A stretch of 64,000 nt of DNA, taken from a virus. Its lineage: Duplodnaviria; Heunggongvirae; Uroviricota; Caudoviricetes. The stretch spans positions 1-64,000 of IMG/VR virus record IMGVR_UViG_3300005323_000039, one strand, 5' to 3'. How positions within the stretch are numbered: the first letter of the stretch is position 1; every line of letters starts with the position of its first letter. The notes beneath the pieces are model-generated. The model was not told where the DNA came from. It did no database searches and was given only the letters and a program-made list of their open reading frames with translations. Positions 24,582 through 63,751 of this stretch are shown here, in pieces. A program made the translations under genes and the position numbers.

Positions 24582-26006
24582 TTGGAGTATAATATGTGCG
24601 GAATAATTGGAGGCTTTACATCAATAGCAGGTGGAGTGGAGCGATTAAAGCACAGAGGGCCTGACGCTCAAAACCAAATAACTGTAGGCAAGGTTAGTCT
24701 TGGGCATACTCGACTTGCTATAAAGGATTTGGATAGGCGGAGTGACCAACCTTTCCACTATGGTAATGTTTGTTTGGTTTTTAACGGCGAAATATGGAAC
24801 TACATGGAGCTAAGGGAGGAGCTTACAAGGGTTGGATATGAGTTTAGAACAACTGGAGATACGGAAGTTTTGGCCGCTTGCTTAAACGCATACGGTATTG
24901 ACGAAACTTTGCGCAAAGTTAACGGTATGTTTGCCTTCGCATATACAACGAATGGAGAGAACGTGTATGTGGCACGCGATAAATTTGGCGAAATTCCCGT
25001 ACATATTGGCATTCAGCCGTCGGAGGAGTTTGGAGCACATGGACGCTTTATATTTGCGTCAGAAGTTAAAGCACTTAAAGCAATTAAAGTCGCTCCTCCA
25101 ACTATTGATTACGTTTTGCCTGGAGAATACGTTGAAGCTCGTTCTAATGGAACTATACACAAGACTAGATGGTATGTGCCGCCAATTGAGCCTGCTGAAA
25201 AAATTACTCGTGGAGTTGCCGCAGAGTTATTGTACGAAAAGTTGAGAGCAGCTGTACGAGAACGCGAGATGTCCGACGTTCCTTTGTGTACGATGCTGTC
25301 GGGTGGGCTAGACTCTTCGCTCATCACATACCTTTTGGCGCAAGACATTCCCAATATTGTTGCATATACAGCCGTACATGACAAGAGTAGTAAAGATTTA
25401 AAGATGGCGCGCATGTTAGCCAAACAATTGAATATTGAGTTGCGCGAAGTGTACGTTCCAACTCCGACGCGTGACGAATTAGCTGAGGTCGTTCGAATCG
25501 CGGAGACTCCATACAAAGTCCAAGTGGAGATCGGGTGGGCCTGTCTTAAACTTGCAGAGGCTATGAAACGTGATGGATTTAAGGTAACATTTAGCGGAGA
25601 TGGTTCGGATGAATTGTTCGCGTCATACGGCTTTTCATATTATGGCTTGAAAAAGGCTGGATGGTACGATTATCGCAGGGACTTGTTTTTAGATCAGCAC
25701 AGAAAGAATTTCTCAAGAGCAAACAAGGTCTTCATGTCACAAGGAATAGAATGTAGGTTGCCGTTTCTCAATCCAAACGTTGTGGAATTTATACTGTCGT
25801 TGCCGCAAGAGGTAGCGCAAGAAGGTAGGAAACGCCCAAAGGCTGTTCTCGAAGATGCTTTCCGTCACAAATTGCCAGATGGTATTGTTAATAGAACGAA
25901 AGTCGCTTTTCAAGATGGAATGAAGATCAAAGGAGATATTGAATCGGTTGTTGCAGACCCGATGAAGTTTTATCGTACAGAATATAAACAATTCCTTACT
26001 GAGTAA
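24582..26006 (+). CDS. asnB: asparagine synthetase (glutamine-hydrolysing)-like amidotransferase
   Basis: N-terminal MCGI (class II Ntn glutamine amidotransferase Cys2), PP-loop SGGLDSS, and SGDGSDELFASYGF (AsnB E-G-ADELFGGY-like) motif. Confidence 0.7.
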   Translation: MEYNMCGIIGGFTSIAGGVERLKHRGPDAQNQITVGKVSLGHTRLAIKDLDRRSDQPFHYGNVCLVFNGEIWNYMELREELTRVGYEFRTTGDTEVLAACLNAYGIDETLRKVNGMFAFAYTTNGENVYVARDKFGEIPVHIGIQPSEEFGAHGRFIFASEVKALKAIKVAPPTIDYVLPGEYVEARSNGTIHKTRWYVPPIEPAEKITRGVAAELLYEKLRAAVREREMSDVPLCTMLSGGLDSSLITYLLAQDIPNIVAYTAVHDKSSKDLKMARMLAKQLNIELREVYVPTPTRDELAEVVRIAETPYKVQVEIGWACLKLAEAMKRDGFKVTFSGDGSDELFASYGFSYYGLKKAGWYDYRRDLFLDQHRKNFSRANKVFMSQGIECRLPFLNPNVVEFILSLPQEVAQEGRKRPKAVLEDAFRHKLPDGIVNRTKVAFQDGMKIKGDIESVVADPMKFYRTEYKQFLTE

Positions 26007-26025
26007 GGCTTACTCCGTTCCATCA

Positions 26026-26043
26026 CAAACTATTTATACTAAG
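26026..26043 (+). promoter_or_regulatory. promoter-like motif CAAACTATTTATACTAAG
   Basis: Same AACTATTTATAC core as 20065-20083 and 38266-38280. Confidence 0.35.
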
Positions 26044-26106
26044 AAAACGTTCTTTCAGAAAGTACGTTGTGAATATTTTTTTGAGTAAATTTTTGGAGTA
26101 TATTTT

Positions 26107-26436
26107 ATGTCAGGTAAAGCGACTGTTCAATTGGACTTATTCGGAGCAAAGGATCCGTTGGCTGGATTCGAACGCCCTGAATACCATGAAAAAGATTATC
26201 CTCAGTGCAAGGGTTCGGAAAAGAAGCCAATGAAGGACTTGAATTACTTTTACGTGGATTTTTATGGCCGCGATGACCTATTCCAACGTTTGACTCTAAT
26301 AATGAAAAAACGAAGTGGAATACGCGGACTCCACAGAGTAAATCCAGAACTCTTTGAACAAATGGTGTTGTCATTAGAAGGAGATCGTGTTGTGATGGAG
26401 GACACAAATGATGACGGAAGTACAACCCAAGTTTAG
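26107..26436 (+). CDS. hypothetical protein
   Basis: ORF overlapping start of radical SAM gene. Confidence 0.35.
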   Translation: MSGKATVQLDLFGAKDPLAGFERPEYHEKDYPQCKGSEKKPMKDLNYFYVDFYGRDDLFQRLTLIMKKRSGIRGLHRVNPELFEQMVLSLEGDRVVMEDTNDDGSTTQV

Positions 26437-27838
26437 GTTCGAGCGCAAGAATGTATGTAAAGAATGTTTTTCTCACAGCGCTCATTGCCCTGACGCTCAC
26501 ACATGTGATCCCATTCGACAAAAGTTGCGAAGCTATGGCGGTATTAGATTCACAGCGGACGGATTCGATTGTGCTTTGCCTGTAACGATAGATTCACATA
26601 GCGCCTGCTCATTTTCGTGTTCTTATTGTTTTTCAAAGTCATTGATGGGACACAGAGAATCCGTTAAGGAAAATGCTGTTGGGCAAACTTCCTTAAATAT
26701 GCTCGAAGGAATATTCAGCGGGAGGACCAAAGGTAGGTCTGAGCAGTTCCGAACGGCTCTTAAATACGACAACAGAAACGCCAAAGGGTATCCTTGTGCG
26801 GTGCAGCTAGGTGGAGTATGCGATCCTGGAGATAACATCGAGCGAAACCAAGGATGGTTGTTAAAATTTATGGACCTCGCTATAAAGTATGAGCAACCTG
26901 TGCGTATGTCTTCCAAAGGCAACATATTTCTCGAACGTGAATATCTGGACAAGTTCGCTGAGAGACCCGACCTTTTCTGGGTCGCATTCAGCATAATAAC
27001 TCCAGATGACAAATTATTGCCTTTAATCGATCGTGGATGTCCTATACCATCTGAAAGGATTGAAGCAATGAACGCTCTTGCAGGGGTTGGAGTTACAACA
27101 AGTTTACGATTCCGACCGATGCTTCCCGGATTGAGCGATCGGACTCCATCTTACGATCAAGCGTACGCTGTGCTTATTGAGAGAGCGGCTGAAGCTGGAG
27201 CCAAAGCCATTAGTTATGAGGCAGGATTTGTCCCTGGTATGATGACAAAGGACATGAAGTCTGAATGGGATGGTATAGAAAAAATAACTGGAATACCCAT
27301 ACGCAGCATTTATAAACGTTTCGGGAAGATGCAGGCATGTACTAGACCATCTTATAAATGGACTGAAGGCATAATGCATGCTGTACGAGACGAAGCTCGC
27401 AAACATCATATGTGGATTGGTGTAAGCGATCCGGTATGGAAACAATTAGGCGAACATGGCTGTTGCTGTGGCATCCCCAAAGATCACCCGGTGTTTGGGA
27501 ATTGGCAACGTGAGAGCGCCACAAATCAATTGTTGGAAGCTCGCGATACTGGCAAAGAAATTCATTGTAGAGATATTGTGCCAAAATGGGCAGAGCAGGT
27601 TGGCGAAGAAGGTATGATTTGTTACCCGGCAGGACCACACGTTCGTCACGACGGCAATCACAAAATGTGGTCGCACACTCTAAGAGAAGTATGGAACACT
27701 ATCGATAAGGAGAGGTCCCCAATGAATTATTTCCAAGGGTGCTTGGAACCAATTGGACTTGACGAAGACAAGGATATAGTTTATAGGTATGTGGGCTTGA
27801 AGAGGCACTACAAGAAGGCCCCATATTGGAGTGTCTAA
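26408..27838 (+). CDS. radical SAM enzyme (CxxxCxxC), possibly SplB/COG1533-like
   Basis: CSFSCSYC cluster motif about 70 aa from N-terminus; additional N-terminal Cys/His cluster CKECFSHSAHCPDAHTC. Confidence 0.6.
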   Translation: MMTEVQPKFRFERKNVCKECFSHSAHCPDAHTCDPIRQKLRSYGGIRFTADGFDCALPVTIDSHSACSFSCSYCFSKSLMGHRESVKENAVGQTSLNMLEGIFSGRTKGRSEQFRTALKYDNRNAKGYPCAVQLGGVCDPGDNIERNQGWLLKFMDLAIKYEQPVRMSSKGNIFLEREYLDKFAERPDLFWVAFSIITPDDKLLPLIDRGCPIPSERIEAMNALAGVGVTTSLRFRPMLPGLSDRTPSYDQAYAVLIERAAEAGAKAISYEAGFVPGMMTKDMKSEWDGIEKITGIPIRSIYKRFGKMQACTRPSYKWTEGIMHAVRDEARKHHMWIGVSDPVWKQLGEHGCCCGIPKDHPVFGNWQRESATNQLLEARDTGKEIHCRDIVPKWAEQVGEEGMICYPAGPHVRHDGNHKMWSHTLREVWNTIDKERSPMNYFQGCLEPIGLDEDKDIVYRYVGLKRHYKKAPYWSV

Positions 27839-36731: not shown

Positions 36732-38252
36732 TTGTTGTTTTTTGAATGTATTTTTGGTTCGTTACACATGCTCTACTCTAGTGACACTTTGAAAGTCGTG
36801 ATGGCTCGCCTCCACTTCTTTCCATTCGTCGAATATATGTGGTCGTATAATAATTACGAAGTGAATTGGCATCACAAAGTTTTGTGTGAGTATTTGGAGA
36901 AGTGGGCCTTCGGAAACATCAAACGTTTGATGGTATTCATGCCTCCCGGTAGCGGAAAATCGGAGCTAGTGTCTCGTAACTTACCCGCGTGGATTTTCGG
37001 CAAAAACCCAGACGCAATGATGATGGCCACCAGTTACGGAGCAAGCCTCGCTTCCGATATGAACAGAGACGTACAAAGAATACTTGATTCAGAAGCATAT
37101 AAAAAGGTGTTCCCAACTGTTGGATTATCGGGCAAATCGGTTAGAACGGTTACAACGGGCAGCTCTTACCTCCGAAATACTGAAGTGTTTGAAATAGTTA
37201 ATCACAAAGGATATTATAAGTGTGCTGGAATTGGTGGTTCAATTACCGGCAAAAGATTTTTTTATGGAATAATCGATGACCCGTTGCGTGGTCGCAAGGA
37301 TGCCGAATCACAAACAACACGTGACACTATTTGGAACTGGTACAAAGACGATTTCCATACAAGGCAATTAAATAAAGACGCTCGTATATTGCTCACGTTG
37401 ACTCGATGGCACGCAGACGATCTAGCAGGTCGCTTGTTGGAAGAACAACGTACTATTCCCAACGGTGACAAATGGACTGTAGTCAGAATCCCTATGATTT
37501 CCGAAGAGGACGACAGATGTCCTGAAGATCCTAGGGAGGTTGGGCAACCTTTGTGGCCGTCTCGATTTGGCGGAATTGAAGCAATGGAAGCTCTGCGACA
37601 AAGCAAAGGTACGTATTCTTGGGCAGGTCTCTATCAACAGCGCCCGACTCTGGCCGCAGGTAACATCTTCAACAGAGGGTGGTGGCGCTATTATAAACAA
37701 TCACCAGAAGAGCAAGCCGCTGGATGTACTGAATTGATACAAACTTGGGACTGCACCTTCAAAGATGGAGATGGTACAGATTATGTCGTGGGCCAAGTTT
37801 GGGGCAGAGATCGCGCTGACAAATATTTAATTGACCAGGTACGTGGTAGAATGGACTTTCCGACCACTCTTAGTGCCATACGAAGCTTGAGCGCGAAGTG
37901 GCCTAAAGCAACACGCAAACTTATAGAGGACAAAGCGAATGGTCCTGCCGTCATTTCCACTCTACAACACGAAATCGCTGGCATCATTCCAGTCAAACCT
38001 GAAGGAGGTAAAGTTGTTAGAGCACAGGCAGCAGCTCCAACAATCGAATCAGGCAATGTATATTTGCCGAGTCCTGTGCATGCTCCCTGGATTCATGACT
38101 TCGTACAAGAGTGTTCGGATTTTCCCAACGGCAAACATGACGATATGGTAGATGCATGTACGTACAGTTTAAATTATTTCATCAATCGGCCACAAAAGCA
38201 GCGCGTCGCTCTGCCTCACAAGTTAATCAGTAGCGGGGACGGTTGGAGATAG
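36732..38252 (+). CDS. terL: terminase large subunit (ATPase + RNaseH-like nuclease)
   Basis: Walker A MVFMPPGSGKSELV; C-terminal nuclease motifs WDCTFKDGDGTDYVVGQVWGRD and HDDMVDACTY. Confidence 0.85.
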   Translation: MLFFECIFGSLHMLYSSDTLKVVMARLHFFPFVEYMWSYNNYEVNWHHKVLCEYLEKWAFGNIKRLMVFMPPGSGKSELVSRNLPAWIFGKNPDAMMMATSYGASLASDMNRDVQRILDSEAYKKVFPTVGLSGKSVRTVTTGSSYLRNTEVFEIVNHKGYYKCAGIGGSITGKRFFYGIIDDPLRGRKDAESQTTRDTIWNWYKDDFHTRQLNKDARILLTLTRWHADDLAGRLLEEQRTIPNGDKWTVVRIPMISEEDDRCPEDPREVGQPLWPSRFGGIEAMEALRQSKGTYSWAGLYQQRPTLAAGNIFNRGWWRYYKQSPEEQAAGCTELIQTWDCTFKDGDGTDYVVGQVWGRDRADKYLIDQVRGRMDFPTTLSAIRSLSAKWPKATRKLIEDKANGPAVISTLQHEIAGIIPVKPEGGKVVRAQAAAPTIESGNVYLPSPVHAPWIHDFVQECSDFPNGKHDDMVDACTYSLNYFINRPQKQRVALPHKLISSGDGWR

Positions 38253-41159: not shown

Positions 41160-42383
41160 ATGCACATAAAAATTTTGATTCCTTACAACTCATTAAAGAT
41201 ACTCAACAATATTAAATTAAATTATAAATGTGAGTTTAACGGCACTGATAATAAGTGCAACTTGAATAAAGATGATAAAAATGATGAAGAGTCATCTGAG
41301 TTTGGCTATGGGCTTCACTTAGTAAAGTTACCTAATGGAGAATATTCAGCGGTGGATGCAGCTGGAGAATCCATATATAAAGGAAGCAAAAGTGGAGCAA
41401 TTACTTCGATTGGAATAATGGAACGGCGATATAAGAAGTGGCCCAAATATATTCCAAAAGAAGCGAAAAATATTACCAAAAATAAGTCTTCATCTGAAAA
41501 GAAATCAAAAAGATCTGAAGAAAAAGTAGATAAGACACCAAAACCAAGATCAAAATCAAAACCAAACGATGATACTCAAAAAGAATCTAAGCCAAGTGAA
41601 GAATCGTCAAAACCTTCTCCTAAAGAAGAAACAACAACGTCAAATGTCAGTGAAGCAAAACTAAAAAAAGAGGAAGCATGGGAAATTTTAATACAAGGAA
41701 AGGATAGTGGAGAAGTAAAAACATTACGAAAGGAATACGAAGCTGCCGAAGACAACTATTATACAACGGTTTTGAACGAAACTTCAGAAACTGATAATGT
41801 TTTTCGAGAAGTTACACTCGGAACTACTGGATTAAAATCGTCAATGTTAGAATACAAAATAAATGGAAAATATAGTGTATTCTCAGATAAAGGAGTAAAT
41901 AAATCTGACGTAGGTAGAATTGTGGAGTATGTTTCTAGAGCACCACCTGCTTTGCAAGATAAAGCTTACAAAATATATTTAACAAAATCTGCGAATCCCA
42001 ACGACGAAATAAATACCAAAAGGTATGGAAGCAAATTTGTTTCTAGTGCGTGCAGAAGTCGCGATGGTAGCATAACGTGTTTTAATTCTTCCAGAGGACG
42101 ATTAGCTATGTCGTCGACAATTTACCATGAATTAGGACATTCCGTAGATGGAACAGAATTCGATATTTCTGGAGGTTCTGATTGGAAAAACGCTGTTCAA
42201 TCAGACGGTGGAAATGGTGTAGATAGTTATTCACAAGACAGTATGAAAGTTTATGGCAAAACGTCTCGAAAATATGCCGAAGATTTTGCAGTAAGCATTT
42301 CTGAATATACAATGAACAAAGAGCAATTTGAGAAAAAGTATCCCAATCGCTCAAAAATACTCAGACGCACGTTGAGGGCGTGA
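41160..42383 (+). CDS. HExxH zinc metallopeptidase-like protein with Lys/Ser/Glu-rich low-complexity N-terminal half
   Basis: STIYHELGHSVDG motif in C-terminal globular half; low-complexity region about residues 90-170. Confidence 0.4.
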   Translation: MHIKILIPYNSLKILNNIKLNYKCEFNGTDNKCNLNKDDKNDEESSEFGYGLHLVKLPNGEYSAVDAAGESIYKGSKSGAITSIGIMERRYKKWPKYIPKEAKNITKNKSSSEKKSKRSEEKVDKTPKPRSKSKPNDDTQKESKPSEESSKPSPKEETTTSNVSEAKLKKEEAWEILIQGKDSGEVKTLRKEYEAAEDNYYTTVLNETSETDNVFREVTLGTTGLKSSMLEYKINGKYSVFSDKGVNKSDVGRIVEYVSRAPPALQDKAYKIYLTKSANPNDEINTKRYGSKFVSSACRSRDGSITCFNSSRGRLAMSSTIYHELGHSVDGTEFDISGGSDWKNAVQSDGGNGVDSYSQDSMKVYGKTSRKYAEDFAVSISEYTMNKEQFEKKYPNRSKILRRTLRA

Positions 42384-42531: not shown

Positions 42532-44199
42532 ATGAATTATTCGTTTAATTACGAACAATATCGAGCAGAGGCTATACGCCACAAGCAAACCAAAAGTATT
42601 CCTCCTGAAGAAATTAAAACAAATGCTAAACGTAAGACACGAGTTGTTGGGGACCCTTACCCTATACTCCCAACCTATAGCACAATATATAATCGTATTA
42701 CGCCGGACCTTCTAGAAGCAACCGCAAAGGTCGCGCCAGTTCAACGCTCCTTACGACAATTGGAGCTTATAGCGTTTCCTTGGTTCGAATTCAACGTAGT
42801 TGCGCCTGGAGTAGGTGAAGCTGAAAACAAGCAAGAGCAGGCCCTACTCGACCGCATGAAGCAAGAAGATAAACGTTTAAAAACGAACACTCTCTGCAAG
42901 CAGTCTTTTTATGATTTGATAACGTACGGTAGTGCTCTATTCGAGAGAGTATGGGTCACAACAAAAGATGGGTGGATCGTGCCCAACCTCCAAAGGTTGC
43001 CTGCAAAGTCCTTTAGCTATGCCGTGCCTGAAATCCAGGGAAATCCTACACGATATTTAGTCGGCAGAATTTTAAAGGGTATTGTATATGACAAGCAGGA
43101 ACAAAGAATGCGGTTTTTCCAGAAACAATCTACCAGCTCTGTTCCTGTAGAAATCGACGCAGAAAATGTAATCCATCTAAAGGATGAATGTTCGAATTAC
43201 GTTGACGGCGATCCGTATCTCGCAGGTATCGTTTCTACGGTGACTCAATTGGAGTTCGCCCGCAAGCGTATGATGCAAACAGTTAGTAGAGGAGGAGCTC
43301 CAAACGCTATAGTCAAAGTCGGATTACCGGACAGCTTTAAAGATGACACAGGTTCGAAGGACCTCACAACGGCAATGCCTGGAGCAGGCACAACCCCTAA
43401 CGACCAAATCTATACTGACTTGTGGGAGTATGCTACACTTTTAGTCCAAAACCAATCCTCTGATACTGCTATAGCTGTGCCAGAAGGTGTAGATTTCCAA
43501 TACCAAAACATTCCGATATCGTTGGATCCCACTGTGCCCGATAGCTATTTAATTCGAGAACTCATATCGCACATATTTCCAAGAGATGTTTTAGAAGTTC
43601 TTTCACAATCAATCAGTACCACATCCGCTCCCCTGTTAGAACTCCTCAAAATGATGATTCAGGGGTGGCAAGCTGTATGCTCCACTCCATTCGAAAAGGT
43701 TTGGACAGAGTTTGCTCAAAAGAACGGATTCGATTTATACGAAGTTTATTTTGATTGGGCTCCCTTCATTCCTGATGATCCCGCCAACGAACATAAATTG
43801 GCTCTAGAGAAATTCATGGTGCACACTATCACGCTAGATGAATACAGAGAATCGATTGGACTAGATCCTTTAGATAAGGCGCAAAGGGTTGTTATATATG
43901 AGGAGCTGACGCGGTGGAAGTCACCTGCGCAGCCTCCCCAACAGCAGTTCGGACAAGCTGGAGCAAGTGAAGATGGCGACATGGGGCCAACTCCAACCGA
44001 AGGCAACGAATTGACTCAACCAACTGATCTTGTCCAAGAAGAACAAAAATTAAATGAAGTGTTCGATGGCGTAAGAACTTCTGCTACATTGGATGAAGAA
44101 CTCATGGGGATTCTACGAGATACTGGTTCAATTGCAATGAAGGTTCTTAAAAGCGCGAACTATTTTGAAGTTTCCAAAACATCATCAATAAAAGGATAG
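42532..44199 (+). CDS. portal protein candidate
   Basis: 555 aa; position between terminase and MuF-like/scaffold/capsid genes; acidic C-terminus. Positional inference. Confidence 0.45.
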   Translation: MNYSFNYEQYRAEAIRHKQTKSIPPEEIKTNAKRKTRVVGDPYPILPTYSTIYNRITPDLLEATAKVAPVQRSLRQLELIAFPWFEFNVVAPGVGEAENKQEQALLDRMKQEDKRLKTNTLCKQSFYDLITYGSALFERVWVTTKDGWIVPNLQRLPAKSFSYAVPEIQGNPTRYLVGRILKGIVYDKQEQRMRFFQKQSTSSVPVEIDAENVIHLKDECSNYVDGDPYLAGIVSTVTQLEFARKRMMQTVSRGGAPNAIVKVGLPDSFKDDTGSKDLTTAMPGAGTTPNDQIYTDLWEYATLLVQNQSSDTAIAVPEGVDFQYQNIPISLDPTVPDSYLIRELISHIFPRDVLEVLSQSISTTSAPLLELLKMMIQGWQAVCSTPFEKVWTEFAQKNGFDLYEVYFDWAPFIPDDPANEHKLALEKFMVHTITLDEYRESIGLDPLDKAQRVVIYEELTRWKSPAQPPQQQFGQAGASEDGDMGPTPTEGNELTQPTDLVQEEQKLNEVFDGVRTSATLDEELMGILRDTGSIAMKVLKSANYFEVSKTSSIKG

Positions 44200-44203
44200 T
44201 TGT

Positions 44204-45397
44204 ATGCCTACACATCAACCCAAAAATTTCCAACAGTTGCTTAAGTTGTTGGAACAACCCTCAGGAGAATATCCAGCAGCTCTGGAAGCTCTATGGCCTA
44301 AAGTTAGTACACCGCTCGCAAAGGAATTGTTGAAGAAGAATTGGAGCTTGTGGGCCAGACTATGGGCCAAACAAGGCGCAAAAAGTTACCTAACGGGCGC
44401 GCGCGTACATGCAACGAAGTCCGGCATTCCTTATTCTGGAGAAATTGGTACCAGATCTAAAGAATATTTTTTGCAACATGGGCTGGATTTGGTTAAAGGA
44501 ATGACTGAAACCGACCTACAAACTGTAAAGGATGGTATGTTGGAGTGGTGGGGTGTTGGTGAGGAGCAGTTCGCTCGGAACTTGAGTGAGTCATATGTAG
44601 CATCTCCAGAACGATTAAAAACAATTTACAGAACTGAGCACCATGATGCTCAAAATCAGGGCGCGCAAGACCTTGCAAAAGAAGTAGGACATGATACAAA
44701 AACCTGGTTTAGTGCGCACGATGAACGATCATGTCCTATATGTGGCGAGCAATTACACGAAAAAACAATCCCTATTGATGAAGAATTTGTTGCATACTAC
44801 ACTCGGAAGGACGGGAGCGAGATTGAAATTAGAGTGCAGCATCCTCCGGCTCACCCGCGATGCTATTCACATGATACAGAAGTTTTCACAGAGAATGGTT
44901 GGAAACTCTTCAAGAACGTTCTACCTGACGAAAAAATTTGGACTCTAAATTTAACCAATAACCAAGTAGAGTTATCAGAACAAATAAATCAGGTAAGATA
45001 TTGGTACGAAGGTTGCTTAATTCACTTTAATGGAAGTGCAATTGATTGTTTAATAACTCCAGACCATTCGATGCTAGTTGCAAATAGCAATGGTTTCGAA
45101 TTAATCGATGCATCAAAAGTTGCTCCAACTGATCGCATTTTGCTAGGATTTTTACCCGAAGAACGCACAATATCGTACGACTATTCCATAAATAGTGTTA
45201 AATATAATGACATAGTATATTGTGTAGAAATGGAGAAAAACAACACGTTATATGTTAGGCGCAATGGTAAAGCTAATTGGGCAGGCAACTGCAGATGCTC
45301 CATTATAACCACAAAAGATAAAACTGAAGCGCGCCAAAACGCTCGCTCTAATATGAAGCTCAATTACAGTGACGACCAGCCCCGCGACGAGAAATAA
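44204..45397 (+). CDS. Mu-F/SPP1-gp7-like head morphogenesis protein interrupted by a mini-intein
   Basis: Immediately after portal candidate; conserved C-terminal HPxCRC motif is split as HPPAHPR | intein | CRCS. Confidence 0.6.
   Translation: MPTHQPKNFQQLLKLLEQPSGEYPAALEALWPKVSTPLAKELLKKNWSLWARLWAKQGAKSYLTGARVHATKSGIPYSGEIGTRSKEYFLQHGLDLVKGMTETDLQTVKDGMLEWWGVGEEQFARNLSESYVASPERLKTIYRTEHHDAQNQGAQDLAKEVGHDTKTWFSAHDERSCPICGEQLHEKTIPIDEEFVAYYTRKDGSEIEIRVQHPPAHPRCYSHDTEVFTENGWKLFKNVLPDEKIWTLNLTNNQVELSEQINQVRYWYEGCLIHFNGSAIDCLITPDHSMLVANSNGFELIDASKVAPTDRILLGFLPEERTISYDYSINSVKYNDIVYCVEMEKNNTLYVRRNGKANWAGNCRCSIITTKDKTEARQNARSNMKLNYSDDQPRDEK
44861..45289 (+). other. mini-intein (143 aa, no endonuclease domain) within head morphogenesis gene
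   Basis: Block A CYSHDTEVFTENGW, block B TPDHSMLV (TxxH), C-terminal ...NWAGN followed by +1 Cys; excision restores HPPAHPR-CRC motif of host protein. Confidence 0.65.
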
Positions 45398-45944
45398 ACT
45401 TTACGTCACACTCCATACTATTGATACTAAAGATTACGGAGACACTACATGGTATGGAACTTTTCTAAAACACAAGGTTGGACATATTCAACAATTGAGC
45501 AAACATTAACTCTAACACAGAACGAACCAACTCCAATCGTTGTAACAGCAACAGGAGATACACTAGATGTGCCTGTTGTTGGTGAGGATTTGATTAAAAC
45601 GAAGCCAAAATCTACCCGCAAACGACGCAAACAATTAAACGAAGCATAAACTTTAATTCGATTAAAGTGATGAGGAGGCGGAGCAAGCCGTCTGATTGCC
45701 TGCTCCATATGGTAGCAACTGTTCATCGTGAACTCTAAACGTACTTTGGCCCAAGTGGGCTCGTCGCAGAGGGGATGTAGATCCTATTCATCGCATTGCT
45801 TTGCTCGTAGGATCAAGCTCGAAGGGATCCATTGTGCGAGGGGTCGCACACTAAAGTCCGTACATTGTTTGTTTGTACGTTGCCTTAGCAATAACATAGT
45901 ACGCATTAATTGTATATATACTTTACGCTCTACTCTAACTCCCA

Positions 45945-49465: not shown

Positions 49466-50659
49466 ATGGGAGCTACTAATAAATTTGGCAAGGTGGCAGG
49501 CAAGACACTAAACGCTAGTGATATTGCAACGAGTGCCGTCACAACAACCGAAATTTTGGACGGTACAGTTGCCGCCACAGACCTTAACACTGCTATATTT
49601 AACAGCGCAACCGAAGCTGTTATTGATGTTGCAAACGACGACATTATCTTTAATGATCATAGTGATTCGCACAAATTCAAGCGAGAAGCTTTCGCCGATG
49701 CTATAACTGCTATAGCAGGTACACAAGCAACATCCGCTCTGACTGCAACCAGTGGAGTCTTGGCAGTCGCTCCAAGCGACAACGCGATTACTATCGGTGC
49801 GGATAGCTTAATTTATGCAACTGCTGCTGGCGTAACTAAAAAAGACCTCGCATCAGATGTTGTTACAGCCATCGCAGGAACGCAGGCTAGCACCGCATTA
49901 ACAGCCGCATCTGGAGTTCTAACGGTTGCACCTGCAGACAATGCCATAACCATTGGCACGGATAGTTTAGTGTATGCGACAGCAGCTGGATTGACTAAAA
50001 AAGATCTGGCTTCGGACGTCGTTACAGCAATTGCCGGTGCTCAAGCAGACACAGCTCTAACTGCTGCAGCAGGTGTCCTGACAGTCGCGCCCGCAGATAA
50101 CGCGATAACTATCGGTACAGATAGTTTAATGTATGTGACTGCGGCAGGCGTACCGAAAAAAGACTTAGCATCTGACGTTGCAACTGCTATGGCTGGGTCT
50201 GGTTTAACCGCGACAGCAGGCGTTCTGAGCGTCAATACAATTGGAATTGCCGCCATGACCGCGGATGATACCGGTTCAATATTCTTTGTTAAAGGCGAGA
50301 TGGACTTCGGCGCGTCTAACGTAATTGATGTCGATTTAGGAGCATTAGGGACTAAGGGCACTCTATTGGGCGGATGGGCTACTGTTTCAGAAGTTCAAGC
50401 TAATGGTGACGCAACAACTGCAATTGCACTACATAAAGCGGCTGCAGGTGCTGCTCCTATATGCGACCCTCTCACAATAACTCTAGCAGATACTGTTGGA
50501 ACCAATCGTTTAGGTGCTGTTCTTGGCATTGTTCCTGTAGCTGCTGGTGTAGATGTTCTTTCCACTGAACACATTTACGCATACACTGCGGATGATGTTG
50601 CGGGTACAAGGTCCGCTGGAAAACTCTACTTTGTATTGCTCTTCCAAAAATCAGCTTAG
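49466..50659 (+). CDS. Ala/Thr-rich structural protein with three and a half 53-aa tandem repeats
   Basis: Repeats TAIAGTQA..LTA.SGVL.VAP.DNAITIG.DSL.YATAAG..KKDLASDVV at residues 81,134,187,240; followed by hairpin + T10. Confidence 0.5.
   Translation: MGATNKFGKVAGKTLNASDIATSAVTTTEILDGTVAATDLNTAIFNSATEAVIDVANDDIIFNDHSDSHKFKREAFADAITAIAGTQATSALTATSGVLAVAPSDNAITIGADSLIYATAAGVTKKDLASDVVTAIAGTQASTALTAASGVLTVAPADNAITIGTDSLVYATAAGLTKKDLASDVVTAIAGAQADTALTAAAGVLTVAPADNAITIGTDSLMYVTAAGVPKKDLASDVATAMAGSGLTATAGVLSVNTIGIAAMTADDTGSIFFVKGEMDFGASNVIDVDLGALGTKGTLLGGWATVSEVQANGDATTAIALHKAAAGAAPICDPLTITLADTVGTNRLGAVLGIVPVAAGVDVLSTEHIYAYTADDVAGTRSAGKLYFVLLFQKSA
49706..50251 (+). repeat. in-frame tandem DNA repeat, period 159 bp, about 3.4 copies
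   Basis: Direct reading of near-identical nucleotide blocks. Confidence 0.8.
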
Positions 50660-51521: not shown

Positions 51522-51917
51522 ATGACAATCACGACATATAGTGATAGAACAGCACCAACCACCCTGCCTTTGCCCACAGGTGCATCCACCTCAGCAAACC
51601 AGCAGCCACCCGCTACAACTCCTGCAATGGACAGCATAACCATTGTTGCCGCAAATACCGAGTACAGCAAGGCACTTCCTGCAAACTGCAAAGCCTTCTG
51701 TTTTCAAACAGTAGCAGCCGATAAGCTAACAGCAGGCGCTGATATCAGGTACGCCTTCGCTACTGGGAAAGTGAACTCCCTGACATTGCCCTTCCAGATA
51801 CTCGTCGGTGGAGCAGTCTATTCAAAAGAGTCCCTGAACCTGACATCTAAAACGATATATGTAGCGGGCGGAGCCGATGCTGTTGGGAATATTGTTCTTC
51901 TTGAGTGGTGGACATAA
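51522..51917 (+). CDS. stand-alone homologue of the C-terminal domain of the repeat-containing fibre protein (55489..56661)
   Basis: EYSKALPANCKAF..YAFATGKV...NLTSKTIYVAGGADAVGNIVLLEWW aligns with EYSYSIPSNCKSV..FAFTTGKV...NLSSKTVYFASDNAGDIVEILAWS. Confidence 0.45.
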   Translation: MTITTYSDRTAPTTLPLPTGASTSANQQPPATTPAMDSITIVAANTEYSKALPANCKAFCFQTVAADKLTAGADIRYAFATGKVNSLTLPFQILVGGAVYSKESLNLTSKTIYVAGGADAVGNIVLLEWWT

Positions 51918-53431
51918 TGCCCGCTGGTACAAAGCCGTACACATCCAAGGATTTTGCCAAGGATAATCCCAATCACTACACAAGAAAAGATTGGAATTGG
52001 ATGATCTATGACATCGATTCGATATCACATCGGAGGACACTAAAAAGCCCCGAATATATCACTGTCGAAATAGGCGGAGACACGTATAGACTCAGGACTC
52101 AGCAGCTAATAGATTTTGACACAGATTCCGTCTGGGATACGGTTGTAGGTACTGATTACTCAGATCTTACTGTTAGGGCTGGCAAGGACGTCTATTTCTA
52201 CATGTGTCAGCCAGGATACGGGAAAATCCCCGAAATCATAATGTCCGGGGCCTCTACATGGCCCTCTGGTTATGATGCCGACAGCTCACGAAAAATAGGC
52301 GGGCTTCATTGCATGCCAGGCGCTTGTGTCAACCTCCCGGTAGGCCATCCGTACAAGGACTTCGATCAAGGTGCGTTGCATTTCAATTCGATTTGGGATC
52401 TCAACGATGGGCCACGGTGCTCTCCAGAAGGCATGGCGAAGATCAGCCTGACGCCCTCGGACGGCAGGCCCGCTCTTTGGGTAGACATCTACCTCTTCAA
52501 CGGCGTTGGTACCACCCTCACATCGGTTTTCGGTGCAACAATCAAGGATACGATTGATTGGATGACATTTGTCGATTATGCCGGGGCAGCGAAGAAGACT
52601 CTGCTCACAGACGCGGAGTTCCAACTCGCGGCCGCTGGCAGTAACGAAGAGACGCACATAAGCACGGGGCTAGATCCAGTAACCGTGACTTTCCCCGTGG
52701 ATACGGCGGGCCGCTCCATGATTTCAAATTATGGCGTCATCGGCATGTGCGGCATAATGTACCAGTGGATTTTAGATGGTCTCGGAAAAGTGGAACCAGA
52801 TGGCACGGTCACCGCCGCATCGAAAACAGCCACGGCGTACCATGCCGCGAGCCCCGGTGGTAACCCCATCTATGTAAAATATGCTGAAAATGGTGAGCCG
52901 TATTTATGTTGTAACATGGCCATAGATACTGCTGATAAATGGCTCACATTTGGAACTGATTACAGAGTGTTGATAAAACATGATGCTGATGCAGCAACTG
53001 GATCTACTCAGCTATATCTCGACGAGGATGCAACCCAACCATCCCGGCCGCTATCGGCCTTAGCGCGGGGAAAAGATGCGTATGTTGCTACGAATAATCC
53101 TTTCTATGTATTGAAGATAACATACAATGCCGCACCAGCAACACCCGGAGTCGCCATCACGTTCGATGATGGCTCAGATGAGAGACTAGAATTCACATCC
53201 CCAACTTCTGTAAATGGTACAATCGATTTGGCGCAGCTATATCCGAACTACAACGCATACGACTACAGCACAAAGGGATCATATACGAGGTACGGCGGGA
53301 GCTATGATGTCAAGCAGATAGCAGGAGGCCACTTCCAGGCCGGGGTCGGCGCGGGATCTAGATGCAGATTTGCGTTATATCCCCGGTGGATTACGCAATC
53401 ATTCATCGGAGCACGGGGGTGTTCGAATTAG
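51905..53431 (+). CDS. tail fibre/tail structural protein candidate
   Basis: 508 aa, Gly/Thr/Ala-rich; GC-elevated block; overlaps next ORF by 62 nt. Confidence 0.4.
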   Translation: MVDIMPAGTKPYTSKDFAKDNPNHYTRKDWNWMIYDIDSISHRRTLKSPEYITVEIGGDTYRLRTQQLIDFDTDSVWDTVVGTDYSDLTVRAGKDVYFYMCQPGYGKIPEIIMSGASTWPSGYDADSSRKIGGLHCMPGACVNLPVGHPYKDFDQGALHFNSIWDLNDGPRCSPEGMAKISLTPSDGRPALWVDIYLFNGVGTTLTSVFGATIKDTIDWMTFVDYAGAAKKTLLTDAEFQLAAAGSNEETHISTGLDPVTVTFPVDTAGRSMISNYGVIGMCGIMYQWILDGLGKVEPDGTVTAASKTATAYHAASPGGNPIYVKYAENGEPYLCCNMAIDTADKWLTFGTDYRVLIKHDADAATGSTQLYLDEDATQPSRPLSALARGKDAYVATNNPFYVLKITYNAAPATPGVAITFDDGSDERLEFTSPTSVNGTIDLAQLYPNYNAYDYSTKGSYTRYGGSYDVKQIAGGHFQAGVGAGSRCRFALYPRWITQSFIGARGCSN

Positions 53432-59487: not shown

Positions 59488-60737
59488 CTAGAGTGGAGAC
59501 GCTCTAGTTCAATACATTTTATTCAATTAATAGAAAAGCAGGCAACGTCTCGGTTGAAGTGATCAAACGATACATAGAGGAATGTCAGGGTTGAAGACCG
59601 CCTACAAGTTCAGGCTCTATCCAAACAAACAACAGGAAGCCATGTTAGACCTGACTCTTGAAACTTGCAGGCATCTCTATAACTTAGCTTTGGCCGATAG
59701 AAAGAACGCCTATGAGGTTGAAGGTGTCAGTCGAAACTATGAGGATCAGGCTGCTATGCTGACTGTTGAAAAGAAGGACGGCAATTTCAAGGGCGTCTTC
59801 TCCCAAGTGCTTCAAGATGCCCTGAGACGGCTGGATAAGTCCTTCAAAGCGTTCTTCCGAAGAGTTAAGGCTGGAGAAGAACCAGGATATCCTCGGTTCA
59901 AAGGCCAAGGCTGGTACAAGTCGTTCACGTATCCGCAGGCAGGTTTCAAGCTGGAAGGTTCAAAGCTGACTCTCTCCAAGATAGGTTCTATCAGGATCTT
60001 CAAGCATCGAGAGGTAGAAGGCAAGATCAAGACCTGTACTATTAAGAAAGATAAGCTTGGTCGCTGGCATGCTATCTTGGTATCTGAGATAGAAGACGTA
60101 CCTCAAATAGAGTCTAAGACAGCTATTGGCGTGGACGTTGGTCTGAAGAACATGGTAGCTCTGTCCACCGGAGAGACAGTTCAGTATCCAAGATACTATG
60201 TCAGAGCTGAACAAAAGCTTGCTGTAGCCCAGAGAGATCTTTCCAGAAAGAAGAAAGGATCAAGTAACCGTCGAAAAGCCAAAATCAAGGTCGCTAGGCT
60301 CCATCAGAAGATCCAAAACCATAGAGATGAGTTCCTGCATCAGGTATCCAGGAAGCTGGCGGACTCAGCAGACCTAATAGTATTTGAAAACTTGAATATT
60401 CAGGGAATGTTGAAGAACCATCACCTGGCAAAGCATATTCAAGACCATGCTTGGGGCAAGCTAATCCAGTTCACACAAAGCAAAGCTGCAAAGGCTGGCA
60501 AGGTGGTAGAACTGGTAGAGGCTAGGTATACGTCTCAAAAGTGCTCTCCGTGTGGTATAATGGTTCCTAAGACTCTGGCAGAAAGAGTCCACCACTGCCC
60601 TAATTGCGGGCTAGAGATGGATAGGGATATCAATGCCAGTCTAAATATCGTCACCCTCGGACTGAGGGGAAGAGCCTGCGGAGATACCAGAGCACTGGAT
60701 CTATGAAGCAGGAAGCCCTGCCCCTTTAGGGGCGGGG
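59488..60737 (+). mobile_element. IS200/IS605-family element of IS1341 type (tnpB only, no tnpA), approximate boundaries
   Basis: Upstream hairpin CTAGAGTG-GAGA-CGCTCTAG (59488-59507) and downstream GC-rich hairpin GCCCTGCCCC-TTTA-GGGGCGGGG (60715-60737) flank an intact tnpB; GC of tnpB higher than flanks. Confidence 0.5.
59582..60706 (+). CDS. tnpB: TnpB (IS605 OrfB; OMEGA RNA-guided endonuclease)
   Basis: N-terminal KFRLYPNKQQE...LYN motif; RuvC-I GVDVGL, RuvC-II IVFENLN, zinc finger CSPCG..CPNCG, RuvC-III DRDINASLNI. Confidence 0.85.
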   Translation: MSGLKTAYKFRLYPNKQQEAMLDLTLETCRHLYNLALADRKNAYEVEGVSRNYEDQAAMLTVEKKDGNFKGVFSQVLQDALRRLDKSFKAFFRRVKAGEEPGYPRFKGQGWYKSFTYPQAGFKLEGSKLTLSKIGSIRIFKHREVEGKIKTCTIKKDKLGRWHAILVSEIEDVPQIESKTAIGVDVGLKNMVALSTGETVQYPRYYVRAEQKLAVAQRDLSRKKKGSSNRRKAKIKVARLHQKIQNHRDEFLHQVSRKLADSADLIVFENLNIQGMLKNHHLAKHIQDHAWGKLIQFTQSKAAKAGKVVELVEARYTSQKCSPCGIMVPKTLAERVHHCPNCGLEMDRDINASLNIVTLGLRGRACGDTRALDL

Positions 60738-62335: not shown

Positions 62336-63751
62336 TTACTTCTTATTCACTTCTTTTATACGCCTCACTCCAAGGATGTCGTGCTTTACAACACCGTAAG
62401 CGAGAACGTCGGGATCTCTCCCAAACATCATACCCCTTCTACGTCTCCGTTGCATTTCGTCTCGCCACGCTCTTGTATAATCTTCATCTTCTTCTATAGG
62501 CTCAACTTTATCCTCTAGTGCGTCATCTACTATTGTTTGAAACGTTTTGGCTGCATCACTTGATGTTGACGAATCAACTGAAGGATGCATCTGAACAGCG
62601 TATGCCATAACTTTAGTTTCGTACGTTCCAACGCCATACACAATTGTGCCTTCATATGGCCTGACTCCATATAAAGTGACTTCTAATGGTTTGTATGGAT
62701 CAGGCAGCTCAATTGGTTGTTCTGGTAACGGAGTTGCAGGTTTAGGTGCAATGGTTGGCGTGAGACGTTCAATCGCAGGATACTTTATGCATTTTCTGCA
62801 TGAATGTGTGTAACCTGCCCCAAACCTTATATCCTTAAATTGTGACTCCCAAATTTCTTTTAAAGTTTGTTTGTTCAGATTACCGTAAGGTGTAGCAATT
62901 CCGTTGTTGCAAGCGCGCTCGCTCAGGCACGCTATAACGTCTCCATCAGCAGTTATTCCACACGTACTGATTCCAGCTGAACAAGTATGCTCATCTTGTA
63001 GATTGTCCGCTAAGATGTAACTAACGCCTGTTGTGTGGTTCCGAATGCGTTCCCTCAAATAAGATATTCCATTTGGAGGGAGCTGGAATTCGCCCATCGT
63101 TAGTTGAATTTGCCACGTTCCGAAGCCACTCGAACGAACGAACTCACTCAGAGCGTCAAATTGCCATACGTTGTGCGTACCAAAGTTTGTAATTATTGTA
63201 ATATCTTTTTCGTGGCCATCAACGTAATCAAACCAATACGGCCACTCTTCATTTACACTTAGTCCAATGCATGTGACTTTATCAATTTGTTTGTACCAGC
63301 TCCACTGAGCTAGAATTTTTCCGTTAGTCACTATTCGAACGTCGATGCCGCCATCAGTTAGAGTTTGTATGATGTGGTCTAGGTGTTCGGACGGAAGCTC
63401 CCCAGGCTCTCCACCACTTAGCGTGACTGTATTCACTCCATATGAAACAATTTCTTGTGCGATACGGTCGAGTTGCTCAAATGGAGGGTTGTCGCGCCGA
63501 AGGACTGTTTTGGACCCACAATATTTGCACCCATTTGAACATTTGAGTGTCACTTCCCATATAATTTCTTTCAATTTTAAGGGTGTCATGTAAACCTCTG
63601 TTCCAATAAGACTCCTCCAATTGCAGCAACAACACATAGTATGACGGCAGGGACGATCGACCAAGATCCAAACAACGACTCCAAAACATATGACCATATT
63701 GTACCGATAATCATTCCACTTGACAATATCCACAATAGTACAAATATCCAA
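62336..63751 (-). CDS. radical SAM enzyme with Cys-rich SPASM/twitch-like auxiliary region and Pro-rich C-terminal extension
   Basis: CSNGCKYC (CxxxCxxC), TLSGGEP SAM-binding motif; downstream Cys array C-x6-C-x10(DGDVIAC)-C-x5-C ... SCRKC. Confidence 0.6.
   Translation of the reverse strand: MDICTIVDIVKWNDYRYNMVICFGVVVWILVDRPCRHTMCCCCNWRSLIGTEVYMTPLKLKEIIWEVTLKCSNGCKYCGSKTVLRRDNPPFEQLDRIAQEIVSYGVNTVTLSGGEPGELPSEHLDHIIQTLTDGGIDVRIVTNGKILAQWSWYKQIDKVTCIGLSVNEEWPYWFDYVDGHEKDITIITNFGTHNVWQFDALSEFVRSSGFGTWQIQLTMGEFQLPPNGISYLRERIRNHTTGVSYILADNLQDEHTCSAGISTCGITADGDVIACLSERACNNGIATPYGNLNKQTLKEIWESQFKDIRFGAGYTHSCRKCIKYPAIERLTPTIAPKPATPLPEQPIELPDPYKPLEVTLYGVRPYEGTIVYGVGTYETKVMAYAVQMHPSVDSSTSSDAAKTFQTIVDDALEDKVEPIEEDEDYTRAWRDEMQRRRRRGMMFGRDPDVLAYGVVKHDILGVRRIKEVNKK

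Follow-up and report, generated by a model that had tools for sequence, protein, structure and literature searches.

Inteins in head-morphogenesis proteins of the Mu-F/SPP1-gp7 family have been described before. The Mu-like prophage of Methylococcus capsulatus Bath carries an endonuclease-less intein in F (Mu gp30), and it was already proposed that head morphogenesis could depend on the rate of its excision (Ward et al., 2004, PMC517821), so that splicing-dependent head morphogenesis is not a new concept. Among the inteins of actinobacteriophages surveyed in 2025, 23 are entered as 'minor capsid, MuF-like, IPR006528' (bioRxiv 10.1101/2025.01.02.630785). Here we analyse a Mu-F gene from the first 64,000 nucleotides (nt) of the IMG/VR Caudoviricetes record IMGVR_UViG_3300005323_000039; this whole stretch is called the window, and all coordinates refer to it. 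An original prediction, made from the sequence alone, had placed a mini-intein in this gene. In our analysis it is highly probable that the Mu-F precursor is interrupted by a class 1 mini-intein, most likely self-excising, that derives from a LAGLIDADG intein family.

The locus resembles the described systems in part. In M. capsulatus, as in the window, a mini-intein without a recognisable endonuclease is found in the Mu F head-assembly cofactor; however, that intein belongs to a bacterial prophage and was described as closest to archaeal IF-2 inteins, so that, compared by description, it is probably of another lineage. The actinobacteriophage MuF inteins have high-GC bacteria as hosts, and the window intein gave no tblastn match to the records of these inteins. 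In one of them, gp14 of Gordonia phage Vivi2, the Phage_Mu_F match breaks off, as in the window, at position 107 of the 112 in the profile, and the Cys that follows the intein (+1) is likewise that of CRC (junctions ...APHEVIN/CFVADTRV and ...EGYIARN/CRCTMLIY, a slash marking the splice junction here and below). Nevertheless, the Vivi2 intein is unrelated to the window intein, ends in RN, and is listed with a 'VSR -1 ORF' non-canonical endonuclease gene instead of an in-frame LAGLIDADG domain; thus a second intein lineage uses the same site. Both family and site are shared with the window intein by full-length LAGLIDADG inteins of metagenomic viral proteins (P0042, P0038, P0040, and P0003-P0012). 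Inteins of the P0042 type keep a LAGLIDADG domain of ~200 amino acids (aa), which the window intein lacks, and they often reside in long polyvalent Mu-F effectors (with ART domains in P0042).

The original prediction held that inteins in virion morphogenesis proteins other than terminase and portal are rarely reported. This is fair for the older literature, but, with the reports of 2004 and 2025, the Vivi2 intein at the same position and the frequency of such inteins in metagenomes, inteins at the Mu-F site are not new in kind. What the present analysis adds is a census showing that inteins have settled repeatedly at the Mu-F HPx/CRC junction (one family in at least 71 protein clusters, plus an unrelated actinophage lineage), a natural pair of occupied and empty alleles from the same samples, and an allele with a free-standing endonuclease gene and divergent flanks, which makes the locus a natural case for the gain, keeping and loss of endonuclease-less inteins. 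The main interest lies in the occupied/empty allele pair and the adjacent homing-endonuclease variant.

The interrupted Mu-F gene

The gene and its parts, together with the preceding portal gene, are as follows (ORF, open reading frame).
44204-45397, plus strand: Mu-F ORF of 397 aa, directly 3' of the portal-like ORF
44204-44860, plus strand: N-extein, residues 1-219 of the Mu-F/gp7 head-morphogenesis protein, ending in ...VQHPPAHPR, as judged from alignments with intein-free homologues
44732-44743, plus strand: CPIC (CxxC) motif of the Mu-F domain, invariant in close homologues
44861-45289, plus strand: mini-intein of 143 aa (precursor residues 220-362), class 1, without a homing-endonuclease domain, recognised by fold, homologues and GC content
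44861-44902, plus strand: block A, comprising the Cys1 nucleophile and CYSHDTEVFTENGW; in the family, G13 is fully conserved and T6, T10 and W14 almost so
45056-45067, plus strand: block B TPDH (Thr66, His69); both residues are the same in all 21 family members compared
45215-45232, plus strand: block F VYCVEM, in which Cys121 is F:4, a position held by Cys, Asp or Gly across the family
45257-45289, plus strand: block G RRNGKANWAGN, closing with Gly142 (penultimate) and Asn143 (terminal); R134, N135, G136 and N143 are invariant
45290-45397, plus strand: C-extein, CRCSIITTKDKTEARQNARSNMKLNYSDDQPRDEK and the stop codon; the residue at +1 is the invariant Cys with which CRC opens
42532-44199, plus strand: portal gene (555 aa), with a weak Portal_Mu match and best tblastn matches in the methanogen-associated Caudoviricetes vir525 and vir524

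The insert reads CYSHDTEVFTENGWKLF...LITPDHSMLV...IVYCVEMEKNNTLYVRRNGKANWAGN and is followed by CRCSIIT. Length and position agree with the original prediction of a 143-aa insert, residues 220-362 of the 397-aa ORF being exactly nt 44861-45289, and the predicted start of block A, the TPDHSM of block B, and ...NWAGN with Cys at +1 are all read where they had been placed. Deletion of the insert in silico gives ...VQHPPAHPR/CRCSIIT, in which the HPxCRC signature is restored, again as foreseen. The insertion point lies exactly between R219 and the invariant Cys of HPxCRC, and this is supported by alignment with intein-free homologues, in which the motif is continuous.

The assignment of the host to the Mu-F/SPP1-gp7 domain proteins, also part of the original prediction, is supported by profile searches and gene order. 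The unspliced protein matches Phage_Mu_F (PF04233) with 44.7 bits (cut-off 29.6) over residues 117-220 and profile positions 14-107 of 112, that is, the match stops at the insert; splicing in silico raises the score to 55.4 bits and extends the match to positions 14-112 of 112. The score for TIGR01641 (phageSPP1_gp7) is 32.4 bits for the unspliced protein, below the cut-off of 39.65, and 43.4 bits for the spliced one, above it; the PHROG head-morphogenesis and minor-head families behave in the same way. When the spliced sequence is aligned with eight close intein-free homologues, C177, C180, H217, C220, R221 and C222 are invariant (CxxC...HPxCRC), and the CxxC and CRC cysteines may form a four-Cys metal site. 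No solved structure was matched by the sequence of the Mu-F domain. The order TerL (36732-38252), portal (42532-44199), Mu-F (44204-45397) is that of a head module.

The insert is confirmed as an intein. Since its match to the curated Intein_splicing profile is sub-threshold, the case rests on homologues, structure and empty-site alleles. A phmmer search against 5.8 billion proteins revealed relatives with the same termini in Mu-F proteins, NAD-epimerases, ThyX and Rpb2 (E 1e-43 to 1e-5), and 1783 matches at E ≤ 1e-10 were found by scanning every protein in a 1.84-billion-protein library. The Mu-F relatives are 520-694 aa long and have an insert of 323-357 aa at the same point, with a LAGLIDADG domain within it. 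The pattern shared by the family comprises the start C[YF][SD]xxTEV[FL]T..GW, TPxH, and the end VRRNGKxxW[SAT]GN/CRC. The same termini occur in other hosts, namely NAD-dependent epimerases (...GSN/CYG), ThyX (...SGN/S or T), and an Rpb2 fragment (...TGN/SRS); an element that recurs in unrelated hosts, with C, S or T after it each time, bears the signature of an intein. All positions that are invariant among 21 family sequences (G13, T66, H69, R134, N135, G136, and N143) or nearly so (T6, T10, W14, D62, V132, R133, and G142) are kept in the window intein. More distant similarities were found to the intein-bearing region of the archaeal PolII large-subunit model (E 4e-5) and to an intein-containing ThyX PHROG (E 2.4e-7); the best phmmer match in the PDB was the KlbA intein (E 0.023).

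The AlphaFold2 model, built with an alignment of 21 sequences, is all-beta and has a mean confidence (pLDDT) of 93, with values of 90-98 outside one linker. Foldseek returned 55 PDB matches at E ≤ 0.001, the best of which are inteins and other Hint domains, including a bacterial intein-like (BIL) domain, BIL2, and hedgehog. The top match, the AceL NrdHF intein (6zgq, TM 0.87, E 2.4e-8), has the same Hint fold and likewise a Cys at F:4; however, it is a naturally split class 3 intein, whereas the window intein is contiguous, begins with Cys1, and lacks the class 3 Trp and Thr (15% identity). The GC content of the insert is 35% versus 45% in both exteins, and only 3.4% of the 429-nt windows in the 64-kb sequence are as low. 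The absence of a homing-endonuclease domain, which the original prediction had stated, is borne out: the domain search gave no LAGLIDADG or HNH match, and the 143 aa were modelled as a single Hint domain, as in a mini-intein. A six-frame scan with a hidden Markov model (HMM) of the family found no second intein of this family in the window.

Occupied and empty sites

Intein-free Mu-F homologues are continuous across the site, as seen in P0002 (...DSHPNCRCAMIT), in P0031-P0037 (...AHAHP[SR]CRC...), and in the homologue from the methanogen-associated virus vir525 (...AHAHPSCRCRAVY). A metagenome scan also revealed an intein-free allele that is 90% identical to the window Mu-F (123 of 137 residues, 3' part). 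It reads ...RVQHPPIHPRCRCSIITSK before the stop codon, ending in HPPIHPRCRCSIITSK, and is carried by Ga0209340_1036275 (L008/L010, JGI) and by a longer ENA contig (L009). The DNA of this allele aligns gaplessly over the junction, which fixes the insertion point to the nucleotide, at 44860/44861 and 45289/45290. Three assemblies contain this allele; in JGI 3300027419 and ENA ERZ27247097 it occurs alongside the intein allele, which is carried there by contigs of 115-116 kb, and the intein is thus polymorphic in nature. A scan of IMG/VR with the spliced protein gave no match.

Occupied sites are frequent. Among 181 collected proteins, at least 71 protein clusters have an intein of this family at the junction HPx/C-x-[CHSGT] (CRC in 46), namely 56 full-length inteins and 15 mini-inteins of 131-158 aa, the window intein included. 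At least 46 of the 71 are supported as hosts by a Mu-F profile, and seven more match the minor-capsid family PF06152 (Phage_min_cap2): a local Mu-F HMM built from eight close homologues recognised 34, a Pfam scan of the rest added 12 with Phage_Mu_F and the seven with Phage_min_cap2, and the remaining 18 were assigned by the HPx/.../CRC junction pattern alone. A mini-intein of the same family (142 aa) occupies the same Mu-F site in a prophage of Natroniella sp. ANB-PHB2 (CP175562, 1641634-1650923; L014:4001-5290), with the junctions ...IPVHPN/CFDSKTEV...TVWSGN/CRCA; this gene is located directly 3' of the portal gene, and no intein family is among its listed precomputed Pfam matches. A tblastn search of 50,697 phage records revealed hundreds of Mu-F genes, all matches ending at the junction and none having an intein of this family. 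The queries were the window protein, P0055 (Firmicutes-type, with a same-site intein), and P0165, which looks actinobacterial-type and whose Mu-F part matched only Arthrobacter phages.

Prevotella phage Lak-A1 was considered as a further same-site phage and rejected, as its intein is in a different, non-Mu-F protein. This full-length intein of the same family (MK250016; L006:1793-3880) lies in a 695-aa protein of unknown function encoded in an unannotated megaphage genome, with the junctions ...KEKFG/CYDEQTEVLT ... RRNGKGVWCGN/SLRW.

The window intein is an endonuclease-lost version of the LAGLIDADG intein family that targets the Mu-F site in many viral genes. In a global alignment with the 340-aa intein of P0042, two segments are conserved, of ~93 residues at the N-terminus and ~39 residues at the C-terminus, which together are 59% identical, while ~197 residues of the LAGLIDADG domain are missing from the window intein. 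The N-exteins of the two proteins are only 39% identical, and higher similarity between inteins than between their hosts is expected from horizontal homing. With the endonuclease (~200 residues) lost, homing by its own means is no longer possible for the window intein.

The intein-free allele differs from the window in a second respect. Its sources are L009:1-1696 (ENA ERZ27247097 k141_36725), L008/L010 (JGI Ga0209340_1036275) and L011 (SRR5248198), corresponding to window positions 44477-45781. In this allele Mu-F is truncated after ...CRCSIITSK, and a free-standing ORF of 275 aa (L009:464-1291) encoding a LAGLIDADG protein (PF14528, 24.2 bits, cut-off 22.5) starts 50 nt past the stop codon. 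Homology to the window stops 27 nt past the intein site and resumes exactly at 45398, the first base after the Mu-F stop codon, so that window positions 45317-45397 are replaced by ~890 nt containing the LAGLIDADG gene. The sequences on both sides are divergent.
44597-44860, plus strand: upstream flank, 68-88% nucleotide identity to intein-free L009
45398-45781, plus strand: downstream flank, in which identity to the alternative allele dips to 75% and is back to 96% at the end
In 60-nt steps, L009 and the window are 100% identical over the first 120 nt (44477-44596), up to ~260 nt from the site, 88% over the next 60 nt, and then 68-75% identical up to the site; from 45398 onwards, successive steps give 90, 82, 75, 82, 85, 90, and 96%. 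Such divergent flanks inside otherwise identical sequence resemble a gene-conversion tract imported with a mobile element, and suggest that the locus underwent recent gene conversion, with either allele as the derived one.

Direct descent of the free-standing protein from the endonuclease domains of the inteins was considered and is not supported: a profile of these domains matched it with 10 bits only, which is generic similarity. No free-standing endonuclease gene was found beside the mini-intein Mu-F genes of the Natroniella sp. ANB-PHB2 prophage and contig L015. It is rather unlikely, though it can be spelled out in two ways, that the mini-intein allele and the free-standing LAGLIDADG gene interact as selfish cassettes which alternate at a single locus within one viral population. 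Homing of the endonuclease gene could erase the intein by co-conversion; or the intein could interrupt the target of the endonuclease and so protect its own genome, which would make it the intein counterpart of the relationship between the psbA intron and F-CphI in cyanophage S-PM2 (PMC6083498). Given the 10-bit similarity and the lack of such a neighbour at the two other mini-intein loci, a functional link between the two elements is rather improbable.

Class and probable splicing of the intein

The window intein has the position-1 nucleophile of class 1 inteins (Cys220 of the precursor) and a terminal Asn followed by a +1 Cys (...WAGN/CRC). It is in frame in a conserved site, homologues exist precisely without it, and its removal restores the homology of the host. 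The same-site relatives are alike in this respect: position 1 is C in 66, S in three and T in two (n=71), and 65 of the 71 end in GN and the other six in SN. Class 3 was considered as well, on account of the Cys at F:4 and of the class 3 intein found as the best structural match. Class 3 inteins have no position-1 nucleophile and carry the triplet Trp(B:12)-Cys(F:4)-Thr(G:5) (PMC4031507, PMC5050341). The window intein was assigned to class 1 because Cys1 is present and the triplet is incomplete, B:12 being Met and G:5 being Ala; Asp or Gly at F:4 in relatives also counts against class 3.

The penultimate position (block G position 6), which is usually His, is occupied by Gly142. The original prediction had singled this residue out as a departure from the norm; the residue is indeed present, but it is not peculiar to this intein, being a family-wide trait and a variant known to splice, and a penultimate His is not a strict requirement. 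In a mycobacteriophage intein with penultimate Gly, which splices, the Gly-to-His mutant was slower (Kelley et al., 2016, PMC5050341). This RDF intein of mycobacteriophage Bethlehem (gp51) is, like that of the window, a class 1 phage intein, but it belongs to another lineage, interrupts another host protein and has retained its endonuclease. A study by Chen et al. (2000) is likewise cited for the splicing of penultimate-Gly inteins.

We infer from the sequence that this copy splices. The reaction would start with an N-S acyl shift at Cys1, followed by trans-thioesterification to Cys+1, cyclisation of Asn143, and an S-N shift, and would yield a 254-aa Mu-F protein with restored HPRCRC and a free 143-aa intein. 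If the intein splices, a functional minor head protein depends on post-translational self-excision: the +1 nucleophile is itself a residue of the CxxC...HPxCRC cluster, so that the motif forms only after splicing. The unspliced precursor would probably be inactive in head assembly.

Several points weigh against a self-excising intein. The curated profile PF14890 (Intein_splicing) matched residues 23-95 of a 146-aa query (insert plus CRC) with 19.4 bits, E ~1e-3, below the cut-off of 35.8, so that the profile search proposed along with the original prediction gave only a sub-threshold hit with this model and the Hint fold was recognised from the model and Foldseek instead; several undoubted relatives lack the PF14890 match as well, and we therefore take the miss as a limit of the profile, not as a contradiction. 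Model confidence is lowest (pLDDT 73-79) in the 16-residue linker that the endonuclease deletion has left (near residues 95-110). Asn cyclisation lacks both of its usual helpers, as the penultimate residue is Gly instead of His and F:13, according to the alignment of block F, is apparently Asn. Splicing of this copy is itself drawn from sequence features, and a single sequence variant of the window mini-intein was found, too few to show purifying selection.

These observations bear on the possibility of a decayed intein that no longer splices, in which case the 397-aa protein works or fails with a Hint domain in its C-terminal motif. The endonuclease domain is gone, the remaining linker has the lowest confidence in the model, there is no penultimate His, and the block F position that is usually His is apparently Asn; moreover, the degenerate Mu F intein of M. 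capsulatus was doubted on the same score by Ward et al. (2004, PMC517821). We nevertheless regard decay as quite improbable, since all invariant and nearly invariant positions of the family are kept in an intact reading frame and the Hint core is modelled confidently (pLDDT 90-98 outside the linker). As the insert splits the invariant H217/C220/R221/C222, the protein would probably not function unspliced; the intein allele is nonetheless found on genome contigs of ~115 kb in three assemblies, and 14 further mini-inteins (131-158 aa) have been kept at this site.

It is very improbable that the Hint domain acts as a self-cleaving module only, as in BIL domains or polymorphic toxins, freeing the 35-aa C-terminal peptide or the N-terminal Mu-F body. 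Effector cargo is common on Mu-F domains (PMC5512222), relatives of the window protein have very long C-terminal extensions, and BIL- and hedgehog-type Hint domains are among the structural matches. However, BIL domains lie in variable regions, often lack a +1 nucleophile, and cleave, whereas here an invariant motif is split and both the +1 Cys and the terminal Asn are present. Joining the flanks restores a motif that runs unbroken in intein-free homologues, the Mu-F profile crosses the junction only after splicing in silico, and the same intein family resides inside enzymes (ThyX, epimerases), where ligation alone preserves function. Finally, there is next to no probability that the 143-aa segment is an ordinary lineage-specific domain of a Mu-F subfamily and not a mobile element. 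Nothing speaks for such a domain except the sub-threshold score with the curated Pfam intein model; close and distant homologues exist precisely without the segment, and the empty-site alleles refute this explanation, which the original prediction had named as its alternative. The segment also occurs in unrelated proteins, has the Hint fold, and differs from its flanks by 10 GC points.

Genome context

The genome is ~115-116 kb long in three independent assemblies. Besides TerL, the portal and Mu-F, the window has genes for a family B DNA polymerase, a D5-like primase-helicase, an RNA ligase and a protein with an Mtd-like domain, and a TnpB-type gene. In the phage collection, the portal has just two matches and the Mu-F domain just one, all of them in methanogen-associated Caudoviricetes (25-37% identity), from which we tentatively regard the virus as methanogen-associated.

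The window Mu-F ends in ...NMKLNYSDDQPRDEK before its stop codon, right where a 17-aa motif of relatives would start. This motif is found at the start of the 407-aa ORF 5' of the portal gene (41160-42383, plus strand), which begins ...IKLNYKCEFNGTDNKCN and contains an HExxH motif (YHELGH), and also between the modules of P0042, a polyvalent Mu-F protein of 3123 aa, and in other relatives. It looks as if the cargo that is fused to Mu-F in relatives is encoded in the window by a separate gene (41160-42383).

Downstream of the head genes, a 508-aa ORF (51905-53431, plus strand) has a match of 47 bits to the second domain of Mtd, a fold of diversity-generating retroelement targets; no pair of template and variable repeats was found near it in the 48-64 kb region, and a reverse transcriptase was not looked for. 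The gene at 59582-60706 (plus strand) is of the TnpB/IS605 OrfB type (OrfB_IS605, Cas12f1-like TNB, and HTH_OrfB_IS605 domains). Metabolic-type genes are located at 24582-27838 and 62336-63751; they encode an asparagine-synthase-like amidotransferase, a radical SAM protein and, on the opposite strand, a radical SAM/SPASM protein. The Ala/Thr-rich 397-aa protein encoded at 49466-50659 in the structural module matches no family and contains three tandem units of 159 nt (53 aa) at 49706-50196, which are 68-72% identical.

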